This document shows, piece after piece, positions 11,135-51,895 of a stretch of 64,000 nucleotides of DNA. The notes below the pieces were generated by a model. The model saw nothing but the letters and a program-made list of their open reading frames with translations. It had not been told where the DNA came from and made no database searches. The stretch lies in NCBI GenBank assembly GCA_963665075.1, contig OY762063.1, positions 145,040 through 209,039 of the forward strand, written 5' to 3'. The position numbers were made by a program, and so were the translations under genes. Each line of letters starts with the position of its first letter. The stretch's first letter is position 1. Source of the stretch: Dehalococcoidia bacterium (lineage in GTDB: Bacteria; Chloroflexota; Dehalococcoidia; Lucifugimonadales; GCA-2712585).

Positions 11135-11790
11135 GGGGAGACGCCCCCATCTCAATCTTCCCCCGTGAAGGGGGAAGAGGTAAGAGGGAACTGGATTCCG
11201 GCTTTTGCCGGAATGACGGTTATGCAAAGGTCTCCGCTATGGGGGAGATGGGGGTAAGGGGCGGTGGATTCCCGCCTGCGCGGGAATGACGGGGAGGTAG
11301 GCGGGAATGACGGAGAGGTAGGCGGGAATGACGGAGAGGGGGTTGGGGGAGGGGGTAAGAGGGGAGGGGTTGATGACCCTTCGGCCCGCTCGACCCTTCG
11401 TCCTTCGACAAGCTCAGGATGAGATCAGGGTGAGCGGGGGAGGGTGGTCAGGGTGAGCGGAGGGATGGGGTTGTAGCGCGACGTGGTAGGGGCGACCGGC
11501 CGGTCGCCCCTACATTGAAGTGAGTGTGGGTTGCGGTGGATTCCCGCCTGCGCGGGAATGACGGGGAGGTAGGCGGGAATGACGGAGTTGTCGGAGGGGG
11601 AAGAGGTAAGAGGGGACTGGATTCCCGCCTGCGCGGGAATGACGGAGAGGGGGGTGGGAATGAGGGGGTGGGTTGATGGGGGAAGGGGTAAGAGGGGAGG
11701 CTTGCTCCCGCTCGACCCTTCGACAGGCCCTTCGACAAGCTCAGGACAGGCTCAGGGTGAGCGGGAGATGAGATCAGGGTGAGGGGGTGG
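11135..11790 (+). repeat. large intergenic repeat cluster downstream of pnp (B-A'-D, A plus 3x21-bp units, C, E palindrome, A, A, C)
   Basis: B at 11143, A' at 11192, D at 11218, A at 11266 with GCGGGAATGACGG(G/A)GAGGTAG x3, C at 11388, E at 11486-11513, A at 11538 and 11620, C at 11708-11765. Confidence 0.9.
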
Positions 11791-11794
11791 GGGG

Positions 11795-14140
11795 TTAGCG
11801 GTTGGGGCGGCGGTATCCGCCGTAGCCGCCGCCACCTCCGCCACCTCCGCCGCCACGGCGGGGGCCGGAGCCGGGGCGGTCTCTGCGGGGGCCGCTGTTG
11901 CGTCCGGGACCGCCACGACGTGGGGGGCGTCCGCCGCCGCCGCCGCCGTAACCGCGTCCACCGCCACCACCGCCTCCGTAACCACGTCCGCCGCCACCGC
12001 CGCCGCCGTAACCACGACCGCCGCGGGGCGGGCCTCCGCGACGCCCTCCGTCGCGGGGGCCGAAAGATCGGGGCGCGGGGCTTTCTTCGCCAAAGAGGGC
12101 GCGGCGGGACAGGTTGATGCGGCCCAGGTGGTCTATCTCCTGAATCATCACCGTTATCTCCTGGTCCATCGCCACGCCGTTGTCCATAGAGGCCATCTCC
12201 TCCGTGCGAAGGAGACCGTCCTTGCCCGGCACCAGTTCGATGAAGGCGCCGAAGTTGGTCATTCTGACGACCTTGCCGGTGAAGATGTCGCCGACTTCGA
12301 GCTCGCGTGTCATGTTCTCGATGCGGGTGCGGGCCTTGCGGATGGCTTCCGAGTCGCTGGCTCCAATCATCACCGAGCCATCGTCTTCGATGTCCACAGT
12401 GGCGCCGGATTCCTCGATGATGGCGCGGATGTTGCGTCCGCCGGGGCCGATGACGGCGCCGATCTTCTCTACGGGGATGGTGATGCGCTCCATCTTGGGC
12501 GCGTACTCGCTGAGGGAAGTCCTGGGCGTCTGAATGGCCTCGGCCATCTTGTCGAGGATGTGCAACCGGCCGACCCTGGCCTGCTCCAGGGCGATTTGCA
12601 GGATTTCCTGGGTGAGGCCATGAATCTTGATGTCCATCTGAAGGGCGTTAATGCCCTTGGCGGTGCCCGCGACTTTGAAGTCCATGTCGCCGAGGAAGTC
12701 CTCGACGCCCTGAATGTCCGACAGGACGGCGTAGTTGCCGTCGTCGCCCATGATGAGACCCATAGCCACGCCGGCGACGGGACTTTTCATGGGCACGCCC
12801 GCGTCCATGAGGGCGAGGGAGCTGCCGCAGACGCTGGCCATCGAGGTGCTGCCGTTGGAACTGAGAACCTCCGAAACTACGCGGAGGGCGTAGGGGAAAT
12901 CCTCCTCGGAGGGGAGGGCCGGTTCGATGGCGCGCTCGGCGAGGGCGCCGTGGCCGATTTCGCGCCGTCCGGTGAACATGCGGCCCGTCTCGCCGACGGA
13001 ATAGGGCGGGAAGTTGTAGTGGTGCATGAACCGCTTGCTGTCCTGGGGGCTGAGGGTGTCGAGGGTCTGCTTCATGCCGATGGTGGCGAGGGTGGCGATG
13101 CTCAACACCTGGGTCTGGCCGCGGGTGAAGAGGCCCGTGCCGTGGGTGCGTGGCAAGACGCCAACCTCGGAGGAGATGGGGCGGATTTCGTGGGCGGCGC
13201 GTCCGTCGGGCCGGATGCCCTGCTCCAGAATTCGGGAGCGGACAACGTCCTTCATCATCGACTTGAAGATGCCGGAGATCTGCTTGGGGTCTTCGTCGTC
13301 GAGGGCGGCGAACAACTCGTCCTTCAACTGCTGCTCCGCGTCCTGCCTGCCGGCCTTGTCGGGGCTGGGAGCCAACGCCGCTTCCAGCCGCCCGTTGAGG
13401 ACGCCTTCCACGCGCCGCTTGAGGTCTGATTCGTCGGGGACAATCGGCGCGGGCATCTTGGGCTTGCCGACGGCCTGCACCATCTCGTCAATGAGGTCGA
13501 TTATCTCGTCGTTGGCATCCTGGGCGCGGCCTATGGCTTCGAGGGCCACCTCTTCCGACACCTCGTTGGCGCCCGCTTCCACCATGCCGATGGCGCCGCG
13601 AACGCCGGCGACGGCCACGTTCAGCGTGCTCTCTTCAATCTGCTCGAAGGTGGGGTTGACGATGTATTCGCCGTCCTTGTAGGCCACACGGCAGGCGCCG
13701 ACGGGGCCTTCGAAGGGGATGTCCGAAATGGACACGGCGGCGGAAGCACCGACGATGCCCAGCACGTCCGGGGGGTTCTCCTGGTCCGTGGACATGACGG
13801 TGAGGACGATTTGGAGGTCGTTGTGGAGACCCTTGGGGAACTGGGGGCGCATGGGCCTGTCCACCAGTCGGGCGGAAAGGACGGCCTCGGTGCCGGGCCG
13901 GCCTTCTCTGCGGAAGAAGCTGCCGGGGATCTTTCCGACGGCGTAGAGCTTCTCCTCGAACTCCACGGTCAGGGGAAGGAAGTCGATGTCCGGGCGGGAT
14001 CTGGAGGACATGACCGCCGTGGCGAGGACGACGGTGTCGCCGCAGGTCACCTTGACGGCGCCGTTGGCCTGGGAAGCGAGCTTGCCCGTTTGGAGGGTAA
14101 GCAGCTTGCCGCCTATGTTTCTCTGAAAAGTATGTTCCAT
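11795..14140 (-). CDS. pnp: polynucleotide phosphorylase with ~99-aa C-terminal Arg/Gly-rich extension
   Basis: Two RNase PH-like domains, then KH and S1 (GDIFTGKVVRMTNFGAFIEL). After the S1 domain the ORF continues as ...GRGYGGGGGGGRGYGGGGGGGRGYGGGGGG...GGGGGGGGGGYGGYRRPNR. Confidence 0.96.
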   Translation of the reverse strand: MEHTFQRNIGGKLLTLQTGKLASQANGAVKVTCGDTVVLATAVMSSRSRPDIDFLPLTVEFEEKLYAVGKIPGSFFRREGRPGTEAVLSARLVDRPMRPQFPKGLHNDLQIVLTVMSTDQENPPDVLGIVGASAAVSISDIPFEGPVGACRVAYKDGEYIVNPTFEQIEESTLNVAVAGVRGAIGMVEAGANEVSEEVALEAIGRAQDANDEIIDLIDEMVQAVGKPKMPAPIVPDESDLKRRVEGVLNGRLEAALAPSPDKAGRQDAEQQLKDELFAALDDEDPKQISGIFKSMMKDVVRSRILEQGIRPDGRAAHEIRPISSEVGVLPRTHGTGLFTRGQTQVLSIATLATIGMKQTLDTLSPQDSKRFMHHYNFPPYSVGETGRMFTGRREIGHGALAERAIEPALPSEEDFPYALRVVSEVLSSNGSTSMASVCGSSLALMDAGVPMKSPVAGVAMGLIMGDDGNYAVLSDIQGVEDFLGDMDFKVAGTAKGINALQMDIKIHGLTQEILQIALEQARVGRLHILDKMAEAIQTPRTSLSEYAPKMERITIPVEKIGAVIGPGGRNIRAIIEESGATVDIEDDGSVMIGASDSEAIRKARTRIENMTRELEVGDIFTGKVVRMTNFGAFIELVPGKDGLLRTEEMASMDNGVAMDQEITVMIQEIDHLGRINLSRRALFGEESPAPRSFGPRDGGRRGGPPRGGRGYGGGGGGGRGYGGGGGGGRGYGGGGGGRPPRRGGPGRNSGPRRDRPGSGPRRGGGGGGGGGGYGGYRRPNR

Positions 14141-15421: not shown

Positions 15422-15543
15422 GAGACCTTTGCATAACTCCCTATTCATCCGAACATTCTATCAAAGAAACAACGCATCTATACTAAAACAGGCCCACCCC
15501 TGGATTCCCGTTTTCACGGGAATGACGGTTATGCAAAGGTAGG
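15422..15543 (+). mobile_element. MITE-like element bounded by inverted D modules, with one A hairpin inside
   Basis: Left end ACCTTTGCATAAC (15425-15437) and right end GTTATGCAAAGGT (15528-15540) form a perfect 13-bp inverted repeat. The interior carries GGATTCCCGT-TTTC-ACGGGAATGACGG (15502-15527). Confidence 0.6.
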
Positions 15544-19874: not shown

Positions 19875-20256
19875 GGTTTGTGGGGTGGCCTCGTAGATGA
19901 AGGAAAGATTGGGATTCAGGGGAGATTATATTGGAAACAGCCTTGGTGCGTCTGCGGGGAGTCACCCCCCACCCCCACTTTCCCGAGGGCAGGCTTTAAG
20001 CTTCCCCGTCAAAAGGGGAAGGGAGAAGATGGATTCCCGCCTTCGCGGGAATGACGAGGAGGGGTTGCGGGGGTGACGGTTATGCAAAGGTCTCCGTGAT
20101 GGGGGAAGGGAAAAGAGGGGGCATGGTTTGTGGGGTGGTCTCGTAGATGAAGGAAAGATTGGGGTCCAGGGGAGATTATATTGGAAACAGCCTTGGTGCG
20201 TCTGCGGGGAGTCACCCCCATCCCCCACTTTCCCGAGGGCAGGCTTAAAGCTTCCC
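19872..20256 (+). repeat. 135-bp direct repeat (19872-20006 and 20122-20256, period 250 bp) containing the amidohydrolase start codon and upstream region
   Basis: By-eye alignment: CATGGTTTGTGGGGTGG(C/T)CTCGTAGATGAAGGAAAGATTGG...GGAGATTATATTGGAAACAGCCTTGGTGCGTCTGCGGGGAGTCACCCCC...AGCTTCCC, with about 6 differences in 135. Confidence 0.85.
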
Positions 20257-20515
20257 TCATGTATGGAGAGCTATGCGTAACTGCCAAATGCGTCATCCAC
20301 CCCACCCGAATCACCCCCATCTCAATCTTCCCCCGTCAAGGGGGAAGAGGTAAGATGGATTCCCGCCTGCGCGGGAATGACGGAGGGGTGGCGGGAATGA
20401 CGAGGAGGGGTTGCGGGGGTGACGGTTATGCAAAGGTCTCCGTCAAGGGGGGAGGGAAAAGAGGGGCGCTGGCCCTTCGACAAGCTCAGGACAGGCTCAG
20501 GGTGAGCGCAAGGGG
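19960..20515 (+). repeat. intergenic repeat cluster (B-variant, A, D; B-variant; then a full D-inv/B/A/D composite; C)
   Basis: A hairpins at ~20030 and ~20357, D at 20077-20097 and 20424-20441, B at 20311-20355, C at 20466-20510. Confidence 0.85.
20265..20441 (+). mobile_element. 177-bp MITE-like composite (inverted D ends enclosing B and A modules)
   Basis: Left end GGAGAGCTATGCGTAAC (20265-20281) against the reverse complement of the right end GTTATGCAAAGGTCTCC (20425-20441) matches at 14/17. The internal left arm TGCCAAATGCGTCATCC...GAATCACCCCC is homologous to 63736-63762. Confidence 0.55.
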
Positions 20516-20884: not shown

Positions 20885-21050
20885 TGGATATGGATTCCCG
20901 CCTGCGCGGGAATGACGGGGTGGGCAAGGGAATGACGGGGTGGGTAAGGGAATGACGGGGTGGGTAAGGGTCTGGCGGGGTGAGTAAGGGAATGACGGGG
21001 TGGGCAAGGGTCTGGCGGGGTGGGTAAGGGTCTGACGGATTGGGGAAGGG
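20885..21050 (+). repeat. A hairpin followed by ~7 tandem 20-bp units (GGGAATGACGGGGTGGGCAA and GGGTCTGGCGGGGTGGGTAA variants)
   Basis: Unit starts at 20908, 20928, 20948, 20968, 20988, 21008 and 21028. The array ends exactly at the lipA stop codon (21051). Confidence 0.85.
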
Positions 21051-26909: not shown

Positions 26910-27135
26910 GGATGGGGGTGGATGACAGCGATTTCCACCCCCATCCAAATCACCCTCACCTTAATCCTCTCCCTCAAGGGAGAGGAGAGGGAGATGGGCT
27001 TCCGCTCGACCCTTCGACAAGCTCAGGACAGGCTCAGGTGAGCGGGGGACTGGATTCCCGCCTGCGCGGGAATGACGGAGGGGGTGTGGGAATGACGAAG
27101 GGGGGTGCGGGATGACGAAGGGGGCGGGAATGACG
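26910..27135 (+). repeat. intergenic repeat cluster (9-bp-stem hairpin, B', C, A plus GGGAATGACG half-sites)
   Basis: GGGGGTGGA(26914-26922)/TCCACCCCC(26934-26942); B' CACCCTCACCTTAATCCTCTCCCTCAAGGGAGAGG at ~26950; C at ~27003; A at ~27051. Confidence 0.85.
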
Positions 27136-27219
27136 GAACCGGTATCAAGAGGGGCGTCGGGGCTGAGGCTCCGGCGCCCCTTCTACAACATCACCAAAGG
27201 CGACCATAAGGAGGTCCAA

Positions 27220-28634: not shown

Positions 28635-28835
28635 TGAGACGGAATCCCGCTTTCGCGGGAACAAGGGGGAAGACGCTCGACCCTTCGACAAGCTCAGGGT
28701 GAGCGGGGGTATTGGGGGGACTGGATTCCGGCTTTCGCCGGAATGACGGATGTGGGTAGAGGGGGAAGGGAGAAGAGGGGAGTGGGTGGCTATTGGGGTG
28801 AGGTTCTTCGTCGCGGAGCCTCCTCAGAATGACAT
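28635..28835 (+). repeat. intergenic repeat cluster (degenerate A, C, A', F-type GTTCTTCGTCGCGGAGCCTCCTCAGAATGAC)
   Basis: A-like at 28641, C at 28673, A' (TTCCGGC-TTTC-GCCGGAA) at 28722, F at 28803-28832. Confidence 0.8.
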
Positions 28836-28862: not shown

Positions 28863-30737
28863 TTAGTGGCGGAAGTGCCGGGTTCCGGTGAAGACCATTG
28901 CCAGACCGCGTTCGTTGGCGGCGTCGATGGAATCCTGGTCGCGGATGGAGCCGCCCGGCTGGATGATGGCGGTCACGCCGCCTTCGGCGGCGGTAATGAC
29001 GTTGTCCGAGAAGGGGAAGAAGGCGTCGGAGGCGAGGACGCTGCCTGTCGCCTTGTCACCGGCGGCGCGTAGGGCAAGAAAGATGCTGGTGACGCGGTTG
29101 GGCTGGCCGGCGCCCATGCCGATAAGGGCTTGGCCTTTTGCCAGCACGATGGCGTTGGATTTGACGTACTTGGCGGCTTTCCAGGCGAATTCCAGGTCGT
29201 GCATCTCGGCGTCGGTAGGCGTTCGTTCAGTGACGATTTTCCAGGCGGAGGCGTCTTCTCGACCAACGTCGGGGGTTTGGACGAGGAGGCCGCCGGTTAC
29301 GGGGCGAAGGTCATAATCGGTTTCGCCGCCGATGGTTGGACTTCGTTGTATGACGCGCAGGTTCTTGCGACGCTTGAGGAGGGCCAGAGCTTCCGGGCTG
29401 TAGCCGGGGGCGATGACGACTTCGTAGAAGACTCCACGCATGGCCTGAGCCGTTGACTCTTCGACGATGCTGTTAAAGCCGACGATGCCGCCGTAGGCGG
29501 AAACGGTGTCGCCCTGAAAGGCGCGGGCGTAGGCTTCCTTCTGGTCGGGATGGCTGGCGAGGCCGCAGGGGTTGGTGTGCTTGATGACGGCGACGGTAGT
29601 TTCGTCAAAGTCGCTGACGACGCGCCAAGCGGCGTCGGCGTCGACGATGTTGTTGAAGGAGAGGGCTTTGCCGTGGAGGAGTTGGTCGGTGGAATCGTCG
29701 TCGGTGGTTGACGCTTGATAGAGGGCGGCTTGCTGGTGGGGATTCTCGCCGTAGCGGAGGTCGTGGAGTTTGTTGTAGGTGAGGTTGAGTTCGGATGGCA
29801 GTCTTGCGGGGGCGAGGGATGGATTCCCGTCTGCACGGGAATGACGGAGGGTGGACGGGGATGGATTCCCGTCTGCACGGGGATGACGGAGGGTGGACGG
29901 GGATGGATTCCCGTCTGCACGGGAATGACGGATGGTGGACGGGGATGGATTCCCGTCTGCACGGGAATGACGGATGGTGGCGGGGGATGTATTCCCGTCT
30001 GCACGGGGATGACGGATGGTGGACGGGGATGTATTCCCGTCTGCACGGGAATGACGGAGGGTGGAGGGGGATGGATTCCCGCCTGCGCGGGAATGACGGA
30101 GGGTGGAGGGGGATGGATTCCCGTCTGCACGGGAATGACGGACGGCGGCGGGGGTGTCGGCGGCGGCGAGGTAGGAGGCGACGGCGTTGTCGTAGTCAGA
30201 AACGTGGCGGAAGGCTTTGTGGGCCAGGCGGCGACGGTCTTCGGTTGAGAGGCCAGATTCTGCCAGTTTGTCGGCAATCCAGCCGTAGTCGAACGGGTCG
30301 CAGACAACGGTTACGGAGGGGAAGTTTTTGGCCGCGGCGCGAAGCATGGAAGGGCCGCCGATGTCGATGTTTTCGAGGGCGTCGGCGAGGGTTGTTTCAG
30401 GATTAGCAATTGTCTGCTGGAAGGGGTAGAGGTTGGATACCACCACGTCGATGGGGTCGATTTTATGTTGGTCCAGTTCCGATAGATGGGCCGAATCGTC
30501 TCGCCGGGCGAGGAGGCCGCCGTGGATGCGGGGGTGGAGAGTCTTGACGCGTCCTTCCAGAATCTCGGGGAAGCCGGTGAGGTCCGAGACCTTTCCAACC
30601 GGGACGCCGGCCTCGTTGACAAGAAAATCGTAGGTGCCGCCGGTGCTGACCAGAGAATAACCGGCGTTGTGGAGGGCGCGGGCGAAGGGGGCGAGGCCGG
30701 TCTTGTCGTAGACGCTGATTAGGGCCAGGCGGGGCAA
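28863..30737 (-). CDS. purH: bifunctional AICAR transformylase / IMP cyclohydrolase with 112-aa repeat insertion in the interdomain linker
   Basis: N-terminal MGS-like domain (LISVYDKTGL, KTLHPRIHGG). C-terminal AICARFT domain (LRYGENPHQQAALY ... IIQPGGSIRDQDSI). Between them lie 8 copies of RHSRADGNPSPSTL. Confidence 0.93.
   Translation of the reverse strand: MPRLALISVYDKTGLAPFARALHNAGYSLVSTGGTYDFLVNEAGVPVGKVSDLTGFPEILEGRVKTLHPRIHGGLLARRDDSAHLSELDQHKIDPIDVVVSNLYPFQQTIANPETTLADALENIDIGGPSMLRAAAKNFPSVTVVCDPFDYGWIADKLAESGLSTEDRRRLAHKAFRHVSDYDNAVASYLAAADTPAAVRHSRADGNPSPSTLRHSRAGGNPSPSTLRHSRADGNTSPSTIRHPRADGNTSPATIRHSRADGNPSPSTIRHSRADGNPSPSTLRHPRADGNPSPSTLRHSRADGNPSLAPARLPSELNLTYNKLHDLRYGENPHQQAALYQASTTDDDSTDQLLHGKALSFNNIVDADAAWRVVSDFDETTVAVIKHTNPCGLASHPDQKEAYARAFQGDTVSAYGGIVGFNSIVEESTAQAMRGVFYEVVIAPGYSPEALALLKRRKNLRVIQRSPTIGGETDYDLRPVTGGLLVQTPDVGREDASAWKIVTERTPTDAEMHDLEFAWKAAKYVKSNAIVLAKGQALIGMGAGQPNRVTSIFLALRAAGDKATGSVLASDAFFPFSDNVITAAEGGVTAIIQPGGSIRDQDSIDAANERGLAMVFTGTRHFRH
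29815..30145 (+). repeat. 8 tandem 42-bp A-module units located inside the purH coding sequence
   Basis: GGATTCCC/GTATTCCC cores start at 29821, 29863, 29905, 29947, 29989, 30031, 30073 and 30115. Each unit carries ATTCCCGT-CTGC-ACGGGAAT, except the unit at 30073, which has ATTCCCGC-CTGC-GCGGGAAT. Confidence 0.95.
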
Positions 30738-31760: not shown

Positions 31761-31764
31761 TTTT

Positions 31765-32300
31765 CACCCCCATCCTAACCTTCCCCCATCGAGGGGGAAG
31801 GGAGAAGAAGGGGATGGATTCCCGCCTGCGCGGGAATGACGGAAGGGCGAGACGGGGGAAGTGATGGGACTGGATTCCGGCTTTCGCCGGAATGACGGGA
31901 TGGTGGGTGGGGGAAGGGAGAAGAAGGGAACGGGCGACAACAAGGGGCGTCCCTACGGAGGGATGGTTGGGGGAAGGGGGGAGATGGATTCCCGCCTGCG
32001 CGGGAATGACGGAAGGGCGAGACGGGGGAAGTGATGGGACTGGATTCCGGCTTTCGCCGGAATGACGGGATGGTGGGCGGGGGAAGGGAGAAGACGCTCG
32101 ACCCTTCGACAGGCTCAGGGTGAGCGGGAAGGAGGGTAGGCTCAGGGTGGGCGGGAAGGAGGGTAGGCGCAGGGTGATCGGGAAGGAGGGTAGGCTCAGG
32201 GTGAGCGGATGGGGTTTGGCTCAGGGTGAGAGGGCAACTCTTGTAGTTGCTCCTGCGGAGAGGGGGATGGGTTCCCGCTTTCGCGGGAATGACGGAAGGG
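31765..32300 (+). repeat. intergenic repeat cluster between purF and purM (B, A, A', a 112-bp near-identical duplication, C with 27-bp tandem units, A)
   Basis: 31813-31924 and 31983-32094 differ at one position (period 170). The 27-bp units GGCTCAGGGTGAGCGGGAAGGAGGGTA start at 32112, 32139, 32166 and 32193, with a degenerate fifth starting near 32218. Confidence 0.9.
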
Positions 32301-32330
32301 GATAGCGGGAACGAGAAGGGGTGAAGGGGG

Positions 32331-33859: not shown

Positions 33860-34230
33860 TCCCCTAGATTCCCGCTTTCGCGGGAATGACGGAGGTGGTT
33901 GAAGGGGGAAGGGATAAGATACCCTTCGACAAGCTCAGGGTGAGCGGAGGGTTGCGATGGATTCCCGCTTGCGCGGGAATGACGGGTGGGGTTGCGGGAA
34001 TGACGGGTGGGGTTGCGGGAATGACGGGTGGGGTTGCGGGAATGACGGGTGGGGTTGCGGGAATGACGGAGGGGGTTGCGGGAATGACGGAGGTGGTTGC
34101 GGATTGGCGATGGGGTTGCAGAACGACGGGTAGGGGCGACCGGCCGGTCGCCCCTACAGAGGAGAGCAAGGGGGGCGCCCTCACCCCGGCCCTCTCCCAG
34201 GATGGGAGAGGGGGGAAGAGGGGAAGGGGG
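33860..34230 (+). repeat. intergenic repeat cluster upstream of purF (A, C, A, ~6-7 tandem 21-bp units GCGGGAATGACGGGTGGGGTT, E palindrome, B')
   Basis: 21-bp unit starts at 33973, 33994, 34015, 34036, 34057 and 34078, with a degenerate one at 34099. E is GTAGGGGCGACCGGCCGGTCGCCCCTAC at 34130-34157. Confidence 0.9.
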
Positions 34231-43607: not shown

Positions 43608-45107
43608 TTAGAGGGGGGATTGGGGGCGTTCGCCGAGTTGGACCTGGAAGAGGGCGGTTTGGCCGTCTCGCCACACTTCCACTTCTACGGTTTCGTCCAC
43701 GTTGAACTTGAGGCGCAGGAGGATGACGAAGTCGCGGAAGTTGGCGGTGGGCCGGCCGTTCATGGACATGATGACGTCGTCGTCCAGGAGGCCGGCGGCC
43801 GCGGCCGGGCCGTCTTCCATGACGGTCCGGATGAGGATGCCGCCGGTGACGGGCATGTTCCTGTCCTCCGCCATTTCCGCGTCCATCTCGGAGACGATGA
43901 CGCCAAGCCAGGGCCAGCGGACGCGCCCCCATTCGATAAGCTGGTTGGAGACGTGGATGGCGGTTTCGCCGCCGACGGCGAAGCCGATGCCTTCGACTCT
44001 TTCGCCGCGAATGGCGGCGGTGTTGATGCCGACGATTTCGCCGGCCAGGTTCATTAGCGGGCCGCCGCTGTTGCCGGGGTTTATGACGGCGTCCGTCTGG
44101 ATCAGGTCGTAGAGGACTTTATCGTCATCGAGTTCGAGGCTGCGGTCGAGGGCGGAGACGATGCCGAGGGTGACGGATGGGCCGCCGGCGAGGGTGAGGG
44201 CGTTGCCGATGGCGATGACCCATTCGCCGACGCGGACGCCTTCGGGGTCGGCGAATGGGATGAAGGGAAGGTCGGTTTCGTCCACGCGCAGAAGGGCGAG
44301 ATCGGTGAGGGGGTCGGAACCTTCCAGTTCGGCGTCTAGCTTGCGTCCGTCGTCCAGGGTTACGGAGACGGTGAGGGCGTCTTCTATGACGTGGTGGTTG
44401 GTGAGGATATGGCCGTCGCCGTCGATGACCACGCCGGAGCCGCTGTGGGTTTGCTCGTCGTCAGTGTCGGTGGCTTCCGCCATGATGGCGACGACGGAAA
44501 CGACGGCGGCGCGGACTTGTTCGACCATCGAAGCGATGTCGTAGAGGCTGGCGACGGGGGGCGGGCTTTCGGGCGTGGGGTTGGGGACGAAGTGGGGGGT
44601 GGGTTCGGGCGTCGGCTCAGGCGTCGGCTCAGGCGTCGGTTCGGGTGTCGGTTCGGGCGTAGGCTCGGGTGTGGGCTCGGGCGTCGGTTCGGGCGTTGGT
44701 TCCTGAGTGGGTTCCGGCGTCGGCGGAGGCGTTGGTTCAGGGGTGGGCGTCTCAGTTGGCGTCGGCGTGGGTGTCGGCGTCGGCGTTAGGGTGGGAGACT
44801 GGGTAGGCGTGGGTACAGGCGTGAGAGGAGGATTAGGAGTTGGTCGAGGTCGGGCTGTCGGAGATGGAGGCGGCGTTGGCGTGGGGGCGGCGACTACGGG
44901 TTGCGGCGTCGCCGTTGGTGTCGGTGGGGGAGCGGGGGTTGGGGTGGCGATTGCCTGGGTGGGAGCGATGGTTGGCGAGGGGGTGGGGGGTGCGTCGTTG
45001 TTGTCGACGGGTCTGGAGGGGAAGCAGGCGACGAGGAGGAGCGCCGCGAGGAGGGGGAGGATGGCGGCGGCGGTTCGTCGGGATATGGGGGTTGGTCGGA
45101 TGGGCAT
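43608..45107 (-). CDS. HtrA/DegP-family serine protease (trypsin-like plus PDZ) with N-terminal anchor and ~160-aa Pro/Thr/Glu linker
   Basis: Catalytic triad contexts TNHHVIE, DLALLRV, GNSGGPL. One C-terminal PDZ domain. An N-terminal hydrophobic segment AAAILPLLAALLLVA is followed by (EPTP)n. Confidence 0.9.
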   Translation of the reverse strand: MPIRPTPISRRTAAAILPLLAALLLVACFPSRPVDNNDAPPTPSPTIAPTQAIATPTPAPPPTPTATPQPVVAAPTPTPPPSPTARPRPTPNPPLTPVPTPTQSPTLTPTPTPTPTPTETPTPEPTPPPTPEPTQEPTPEPTPEPTPEPTPEPTPEPTPEPTPEPTPEPTPHFVPNPTPESPPPVASLYDIASMVEQVRAAVVSVVAIMAEATDTDDEQTHSGSGVVIDGDGHILTNHHVIEDALTVSVTLDDGRKLDAELEGSDPLTDLALLRVDETDLPFIPFADPEGVRVGEWVIAIGNALTLAGGPSVTLGIVSALDRSLELDDDKVLYDLIQTDAVINPGNSGGPLMNLAGEIVGINTAAIRGERVEGIGFAVGGETAIHVSNQLIEWGRVRWPWLGVIVSEMDAEMAEDRNMPVTGGILIRTVMEDGPAAAAGLLDDDVIMSMNGRPTANFRDFVILLRLKFNVDETVEVEVWRDGQTALFQVQLGERPQSPL

Positions 45108-49574: not shown

Positions 49575-49832
49575 GGAACACCCCCATCCCAACCTTCCCC
49601 CATTAAGGGGGAAGGGATAAGAGGGGAAGGGCGGTTATGCAAAGGTCTCTGTCGAGGGGGAAGGGGTAAGAGGGGATGGATTCCGGCTTTCGCCGGAATG
49701 ACGGGATTGGTTGGGGGTGAGGGGGACCGCTCGACCCTTCGACAGGCTCAGGGTGAGCGGGGGGGGGGGGGGGGAACACCCCCATCCTAACCTTCCCCCG
49801 TCAAGGGGGAAGGGAGAAGAGGTAAGAGGGGA
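49575..49832 (+). repeat. intergenic repeat cluster (B, D, A', C, G16 homopolymer, B)
   Basis: B at 49579, D at 49632, A' at 49676, C at 49728, 16 consecutive G at 49759-49774, B at 49778. Confidence 0.85.
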
Positions 49833-51804: not shown

Positions 51805-51895
51805 CGGTGGATTCCCGCCTGCGCGGGAATGACGGGAGGGTGACGGGAATGACGAAAGGGGACGGAAGGGGAGGCGGGAATGACGGAGGGAGGAG
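51805..51895 (+). repeat. A module plus three GGGAATGACG half-sites
   Basis: A at 51808; half-sites near 51845 and 51876. Confidence 0.8.

Follow-up and report, generated by a model that had tools for sequence, protein, structure and literature searches.

In the 64,000-nucleotide stretch of a Dehalococcoidia bacterium genome analysed here (contig OY762063.1 of assembly GCA_963665075.1, positions 145,040-209,039; hereafter the window), the purH gene, encoding the bifunctional inosine monophosphate (IMP) cyclohydrolase/5-aminoimidazole-4-carboxamide ribonucleotide (AICAR) transformylase, contains an in-frame array of eight copies of a short hairpin-forming repeat that also occurs between the genes of the region (Table 1). 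Tandem Repeats Finder (TRF), applied to the whole window, reported a single array with a 42-bp period at 29816-30153 (8.1 copies, 92% matches, 0% indels), in agreement with the eight in-frame copies and the exact 42-bp period described in a first-pass annotation of this DNA. In the purH frame (minus strand), the units begin at 30140, 30098, 30056, 30014, 29972, 29930, 29888, and 29846, and the hairpins start on the plus strand at 29823, 29865, 29907, 29949, 29991, 30033, 30075, and 30117. The open reading frame (ORF) passes through all eight units and is intact over 624 codons, and the units are translated as RHSRADGNPSPSTL and close variants. Read on the coding strand, a unit consists of CGTC / ATTCCCGT GCAG ACGGGAAT / CCA, i.e. 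a 27-nt element in which a single 20-nt hairpin is flanked by a tag of 4 nt and a tail of 3 nt. A C-rich spacer of 15 nt, TCCCCNTCCACCNTC, completes the 42 bp; the tail of unit 8 has diverged.

Table 1. Features of the purH region, in coordinates of the window
Feature	Position	Strand	Remarks
purH ORF	28863..30737	-	624 aa, TTG start as listed; bifunctional IMP cyclohydrolase/AICAR transformylase
IMP-cyclohydrolase (MGS-like) domain and start of native linker (..ASYLAAADTPAAV)	30141..30737	-	Codons 1-199
Eight head-to-tail 42-bp units	29805..30140	-	14 codons each, aa 200-311 of PurH
AICAR-transformylase domain, beginning RLPSELNLTYNKLHDLRYGENPHQ	28863..29804	-	Codons 312-624 and stop
Single repeat, ATTCCGG variant	28725..28744	+	Intergenic, just 3' of the purH stop, oriented like the array
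Repeat-rich mosaic spacer between purF and purM	31791..32234	+	Hairpins at 31818, 31874, 31988, and 32044, with other modules; found by TRF
Repeat cluster 5' of purF	33868..34136	+	Hairpins at 33868 and 33961, then a 21-bp right-half unit (GCGGGAATGACGGGTGGGGTT) repeated 7.9 times; found by TRF

The host protein is a member of the PurH family with an MGS-like IMP cyclohydrolase (IMPCH) domain and an AICAR transformylase (AICARFT) domain, and the location of the array between the two, proposed from the sequence at first pass, was borne out by both Pfam (MGS, 2.6e-21, residues 14-129; AICARFT_IMPCHas, 5.4e-112, covering residues 312-556) and alignment with the PurH of M. tuberculosis (3zzm; E = 7.7e-138). 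In this alignment, residues 3-193 correspond to 11-199 and residues 311-624 to 207-523; as the counterpart runs from ~199 to 207 across the array, the extra 112 residues replace nothing and fall exactly at the interdomain linker. The gene is otherwise intact and under purifying selection, because the ratio of non-synonymous to synonymous substitution rates (dN/dS) outside the array is low (0.138-0.151 against six relatives, and ~0.14 on each side of the array), the protein conforms in every invariant column of a 98-sequence PurH alignment, and both domains are confidently predicted. In an AlphaFold2 model computed with the same alignment as input, the predicted local distance difference test score (pLDDT) is mostly 88-97 in the IMPCH domain, with a drop to ~66-73 at residues 51-70, and mostly 80-98 in the AICARFT domain. 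Residues 196-309 are modelled as coil with no secondary structure and a pLDDT of 27-37, which agrees with the earlier suggestion of a disordered tether. The product is thus predicted to be a normal enzyme apart from the 112-residue Pro/Ser/Arg-rich disordered segment joining its domains. A foreign insert of 112 aa could in principle be disabling, and purH might then be a pseudogene in decay, broken up by invading repeats, with its function supplied elsewhere; given the unbroken frame, the constraint on both flanks, the complete set of family-invariant residues, the two well-predicted domains, and the purF-purM-purH synteny, which is kept in the window as in its relatives, this explanation is extremely improbable. 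A PurH-based search of genome contigs placed the lineage near Dehalococcoidia metagenome-assembled genomes, the best of the matches listed having 69% identity.

Differences between the units amount to 20, and several variants are common to neighbouring units, namely A25 (units 3-4), A40 (units 3-5), and G33 (units 3 and 5-7), a pattern that fits stepwise local duplication. This pattern bears on whether an assembly error could have inflated zero or one in-frame repeat to eight. Near-identical repeats fill this genome and are a classic source of such errors, and the 624-aa protein (P0001 in our set) is on record from a single contig. The array is only 336 bp long, however, its units can be told apart individually and show a nested pattern of variants, and the period is exact, without indels or frameshift. 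The 15-nt spacer is found nowhere else in the window, where it was used as a query for a donor array and none was found, and it therefore cannot have been borrowed from another locus. The contig measures 2.70 Mb, and long reads would easily span an array of this size; the contig names of the sister genomes resemble those given by long-read assemblers. An artefact of assembly is therefore very improbable.

The repeat, designated the A element at first pass, is, judged by its sequence architecture, a CGTC-1 repetitive extragenic palindrome (REP). REPs of this type are defined by an unpaired CGTC (or TGTC/CCTC) tag, an 8-bp stem starting from AT, a 4-nt loop, and a CCA tail, and have been equated with dRS3 of Neisseria and the Rickettsia palindromic element (RPE) RPE-6 of Rickettsia conorii (PMC3733652; Di Nocera, De Gregorio & Rocco 2013, BMC Genomics 14:522). 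All eight purH units open with CGTC/ATTCCC on the coding strand, their 8-bp stems are ATTCCCGT/ACGGGAAT or ATTCCCGC/GCGGGAAT, the loop is GCAG, and the tail is GGGAAT/CCA in six units and ACA in units 3-4; the predicted RNA structure of a unit is ....((((((((....)))))))). The assignment rests on this four-point match and on the flanks common to the units and the intergenic copies. The window contains 31 hairpins in 64 kb, 25 of them intergenic and distributed over ~18 spacers, for a chance expectation of 0; the strict palindrome ATTCCCG-N6-CGGGAAT alone occurs 26 times (0.00 expected from dinucleotide shuffles), with six matches in purH, where the remaining two units carry T>C in one arm. On the plus strand, the 25 intergenic hairpins share the flanks ..GATGG / hairpin / GACGG.. 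(tail consensus ..gaTGG/ATTCC) and have the orientation of the purH units, supporting the first-pass view that the unit and the intergenic element are the same. The innermost stem pair is GT/AC in seven of the eight units and GC/GC in unit 2. As had been noted, the GT/AC variant occurs only once in the window outside purH (at 15504), but it is not private to this gene: at least 120 metagenome contigs, representing many biomes, carry the exact 24-mer CGTCATTCCCGTGCAGACGGGAAT. The label of miniature inverted-repeat transposable element (MITE), also applied at first pass, is not established, as no terminal inverted repeats were seen beyond the single hairpin.

The window REPs resemble the published CGTC-1 families not only in their tag, stem, loop, and tail but also in their high copy number, their mainly intergenic location, and the occurrence of in-frame copies with the three shared peptide readings RxSRxGGNP, VIPAxAGI, and SFPRxRES. 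They differ in host and in arrangement. The published families are mostly from Alphaproteobacteria, and Chloroflexi are listed for GTAG REPs only (PMC3733652). Published copies are mainly head-to-head dimers, an arrangement that is typical of the family though not strictly defining, and head-to-tail arrays are 'negligible' (PMC3733652), whereas no inverted pair was found in the window and its arrays are all head to tail. This uniformity extends to the whole window: the REP tail GGAATGACG (equivalent to CGTCATTCC on the minus strand) occurs 52 times on the plus strand and 0 times on the minus strand, e.g. at 11195, 15504, 20033, 27054, 28725, 31818, 37800, 45299, 52720, and 63809. The orientation is the same between plus-strand genes (27054), between minus-strand genes, between divergent genes (15504 and 37800), and inside purH. 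The GC skew of the plus strand is very strong and uniformly positive across the window (+0.07 to +0.30), also inside genes. Because the plus strand is G-rich in genes of both orientations, the direction of the REPs follows a replication-type strand asymmetry rather than transcription. This one-way orientation truly departs from what has been published for CGTC REPs and is, of all the leads that the window offers, the most interesting, as it may bear on how CGTC REPs are mobilized. Most of the long ORFs of the window lie on the C-rich minus strand, which by the usual convention would be the lagging strand.

At several positions, a full hairpin precedes a tandem array that consists of the right half-site alone (GCGGGAATGACGG with a further 7-8 nt), with a period of 20-21 bp and up to 7.9 copies (11280-11339, 20371-20425, 20908-21050, 27066-27135, 33973-34136, and 51824-51865). 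Such amplification of half-elements is not described for CGTC REPs in PMC3733652. The spacers themselves are mosaics of fixed orientation, similar to bacterial interspersed mosaic elements (BIMEs), in which the REPs are combined with the module GACGGTTATGCAAAGGTCTCC, a second hairpin (CTTCCCCC-N-GGGGGAAG), and GCTCGACCCTTCGACAAGCTCAGGGTGAGCGG; examples lie at 11150-11700, 20000-20450, 27000-27140, 31770-32330, 33880-33960, and 49640-49780. In these respects, the window recalls the GTAG REPs, REP doublets forming hairpins (REPINs), and BIMEs that are mobilized by REP-associated tyrosine transposases (RAYTs): both comprise short hairpin repeats in mosaic intergenic arrays with other modules, and both show a strong regularity of strand or orientation that would fit a single-strand DNA mechanism. 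REPINs, however, are inverted doublets, whereas the window copies are all direct; the GTAG tag of the REPIN-RAYT system is absent, its place being taken by CGTC; and no RAYT-like ORF came to light in the window with two S. maltophilia RAYTs as tblastn queries. On the grounds that all 52 tails are co-oriented in ~18 spacers and purH, and that right half-sites are tandemly repeated, the purH array might be a symptom of a hitherto undescribed, replication-coupled, single-strand spread of CGTC REPs, either IS200/IS605-like or driven by slippage. We regard this as unlikely; if it were true, the mobilization of CGTC REPs would be directly testable, and the purH array would be an active site of copy-number variation rather than a fossil.

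Comparison with orthologues, which had been suggested as a means of dating the insertion, indicated that it is lineage-specific and recent. The 23 PurH proteins nearest to that of the window (75-87% identity) have lengths of 487-524 aa, and the array is absent from all of them; the proposal that a REP entered a permissive linker and expanded there in multiples of three is supported by this absence from all close relatives. The REP family as a whole has bloomed in the genome of the window, since 18 hairpins are present in its 25-kb syntenic stretch and 0-3 in each of the corresponding 21.5-kb loci of six relatives. Two of the 23 proteins, P0010 (locus L003) and P0019 (locus L004), contain one in-frame copy of the sister variant ATTCCGG..CCGGAAT with a GAAA loop (peptide IRHSGESRNPS), that of L003 lying on a 1.8-Mb contig. 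These copies directly follow YLT/YLA, and the window array begins ~9 codons later, after AAADTPAAV, which looks like a complete native linker. In a neighbour-joining tree from which the linker was excluded, the three carriers do not group together but are scattered. The most economical reading is that at least two separate insertions occurred into the same permissive linker and that one of them expanded in the genome of the window. The empty sites of the relatives are too diverged for target-site duplications to be defined. The history is blurred by recombination of purH in sister lineages: the gene of L003 (10001-11575) clearly forms a recombination mosaic with that of L085 (10001-11548), the two being 95-99% identical in the 3' half and ~80% identical around the linker. 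A recombination tract common to L003 and L004 was also sought, and identity between them was raised over the REP itself only.

A single ancient insertion would explain the distribution in another way: a REP in the clade ancestor would survive as a decayed right half in most lineages and as one copy in L003 and L004, and would have re-expanded in the window. The 'empty' linker of L087 (GCAGGCGGGGAT) does resemble the element (GCAGGCGGGAAT) in the same frame, with the peptide AGGDSPST recalling AGGNPSPST, L002 contains TCCACCCTC, which corresponds to the end of a unit, and the linkers of the ingroup exceed those of the outgroups by 3-6 aa. When the empty linkers were examined as decayed REP halves by local alignment against control windows and shuffles, however, the resemblance was not significant and amounts to a hint: 2-35% of the equal-length control windows from the same genes scored as well, and only L087 fell below 1% in the shuffles. 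The window array also differs from the L003/L004 copies in its site and in its stem and loop variant, and the scattered carriers would require at least five precise losses, with the mosaic structure of purH obscuring any such deduction. One ancestral insertion is therefore improbable. The linker of another PurH homologue (P0051, 532 aa) contains SPLHPSPAGRGDGVRSSPAG, which resembles the translation of a different, GC-rich dispersed repeat; in other lineages, repeats of different families may thus likewise have entered the linker of PurH.

The composition of the array gives little sign of constraint. The openness of the frame, to which the first-pass annotation drew attention, is real over 624 aa but not in itself remarkable: the unit lacks stop codons in five of its six frames, so an open frame requires only a period divisible by three. 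The differences between units fall at codon positions 1, 2, and 3 in 11, 3, and 6 cases, respectively, and are mostly non-synonymous. The RNA hairpins of the units have a predicted energy of -11.6 kcal/mol (-13.7 for the GC variant of unit 2), but in units 4 and 7 the stem is shortened by three pairs to 5 bp (-8.6 kcal/mol). The array as a whole folds better than its shuffles (z = -3.3), which is a property of the element and not of purH, because the same hairpins are found throughout the intergenic DNA in one orientation regardless of gene direction.

These data also bear on whether the array is functional and selected, either as a flexible tether that alters the active sites or the dimer or as a run of eight mRNA hairpins. 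The latter would slow ribosomes, and so help co-translational folding of the N-terminal domain, or would control decay of the purF-purM-purH transcript, in line with the regulatory hairpins envisaged at first pass. Consistent with selection, six of the eight hairpins are intact, the whole array folds well, the pairing in unit 2 has been kept through a double change, three independent-looking purH insertions use one common hydrophilic frame, and REPs in transcripts have been discussed as RNA elements (PMC3733652). Nevertheless, the absence of the array from all 23 close relatives means that PurH does not need it in this clade, decay has left only 5 bp in two of the eight stems, the substitutions show neither a third-position excess nor any peptide constraint, and the hairpins are shared with intergenic DNA. 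A selected tether is accordingly quite improbable, and the idea of a selected hairpin run fares equally poorly. Nothing indicates selection on the insert, whether on its peptide or on its hairpins, the common frame being a mild exception.

The array is probably best explained as a selfish or neutral REP that entered a permissive linker of PurH, was amplified head to tail, and was tolerated, with selection acting only as a filter. A CGTC-1-type REP has proliferated in the intergenic DNA of this Dehalococcoidia-like genome, and one copy would have inserted, by the mobilization route of CGTC REPs, into the sequence for the flexible interdomain linker. A 42-bp segment comprising the REP and a short C-rich flank would then have been amplified to eight copies, which we infer to have occurred by replication slippage or by unequal recombination between hairpin-forming direct repeats. 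As the unit is 14 codons long and stop-free in the frame used, any change in copy number leaves PurH in frame. Selection would have filtered for the linker position, for multiples of three, and for the hydrophilic frame, and no new function would have been built.

Several points weigh against this explanation. The array and its copy number rest on one assembly. For the insertion step, no dedicated transposase is known for CGTC REPs (PMC3733652), and no transposase or other mobilizing enzyme was found in the window, where the two S. maltophilia RAYTs used as tblastn queries had no match with E below 0.27; the window covers 64 kb of a genome of 2.7 Mb. A compensatory pair sets unit 2 apart from the other units (C..G instead of T..A); this could reflect maintenance of the hairpin, although it may simply be the common intergenic variant. 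All three purH insertions are read in the RHS..NP frame, which hints at some selection on the encoded peptide; the same choice could result if the more hydrophobic frame (VIPVQTGI) or the one that contains Cys (SFPCRRES) were filtered out. Finally, the argument for neutrality is statistically weak, as it comes from only eight young copies.

In-frame insertion of palindromic repeats has precedents, which means that the novelty of the purH array was overstated at first pass. Ogata et al. reportedly described RPEs (RPE-1 and others) in frame in protein-coding genes of Rickettsia in 2000. Among CGTC-1 REPs, copies 'entirely located within ORFs' were catalogued in several species in 2013 (PMC3733652), more than half of them as dimers or groups encoding 20-30 aa, with clusters of 43-82 aa. 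The peptides listed, which closely match those of the purH units, include RYSRAGGNP (Coxiella CBU_1551), CHSRESGNP and CHSRRSGNP (R. conorii), and RHSGGGRNL (S. wittichii), with VIPAKAGI and SFPRKRES for the other two frames (PMC3733652, Additional file 3), and a group of 81 aa lies in dnaE2 of S. wittichii (Swit_1119; PMC3733652). Searching the literature for more recent studies of CGTC REPs or of insertions in purH yielded only this study and MITE reviews. The exact REP variant of the window was further detected in frame in genes from unrelated metagenomes, i.e. within the domain of a Cas_Cmr3 protein (L092, 4039-4062, and likewise L134), in an FtsK linker (between the 4TM and alpha domains; L166, 598-621), and as an array of three 57-bp units on the N-terminal side of the Peptidase_S78 prohead protease domain (L148, 1892-2029). 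The purH array is thus an unusually large case of a known phenomenon, the intragenic CGTC-1 REP cluster, and does not reveal a new kind of system; purH is absent from the published list of targets, and, at 112 aa, the eight units are longer than any intragenic cluster recorded there (PMC3733652).

Two other types of coding repeat are close to the purH array. Like in-frame RPEs, which have been viewed as an extreme case of REP behaviour in a 2024 review (PMC10969869), it consists of selfish palindromes in an essential or metabolic gene, inserted in frame at a permissive surface or linker position with the protein remaining functional; the repeat lies in a conserved gene, the host ORF is preserved, and the orthologues lack the array. 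RPE-1-type elements, however, are single insertions of ~100-150 bp with a conserved peptide, whereas the purH insert is a 27-nt REP with a 15-nt spacer that owes its length to tandem amplification, and its host belongs to a free-living-type Dehalococcoidia lineage, not to the obligate intracellular Alphaproteobacteria. With the intragenic tandem repeats that form variable disordered linkers, such as those of FtsK and cell-surface proteins, the purH array shares a period that is a multiple of three and a low-complexity, Pro/Ser-rich disordered peptide between folded domains; its unit differs in being demonstrably copied from a repeat dispersed in the genome, not from native coding sequence that was duplicated.

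The array adds a core enzyme of purine biosynthesis to the known REP-decorated proteins, and the Chloroflexota to their hosts; at 112 aa, it is longer than any REP-encoded segment of a conserved protein in the 2013 catalogue (81-82 aa). It constitutes a clean natural experiment on the amount of foreign disordered sequence tolerated by the interdomain linker of PurH, which may be of use in the engineering of domain linkers, and annotation pipelines may flag such genes as aberrant.

The gap between purF and purM is also filled with REPs of the same family and orientation as those of the purH array. It consists of ~570 bp of repeats (31761-32330), whereas the relatives have overlapping purF and purM genes or a gap of 36-250 bp, and the enlarged spacer may matter for co-transcription of purF with purM-purH. 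A scan of the whole 64 kb against Rfam gave no family at gathering score, and hence no tRNA, riboswitch, or other known RNA; a ZTP riboswitch near the pur genes is likewise absent. Two further intragenic tandem repeats of the window, both in minus-strand ORFs, are unrelated to the REP: one at 11816-12024 (ORF 11795-14140; periods of 15, 21, and 30) and the other at 44599-44747 (ORF 43608-45107; periods of 12, 24, and 36). They presumably encode low-complexity linkers rich in Gly or in Pro/Glu/Thr.

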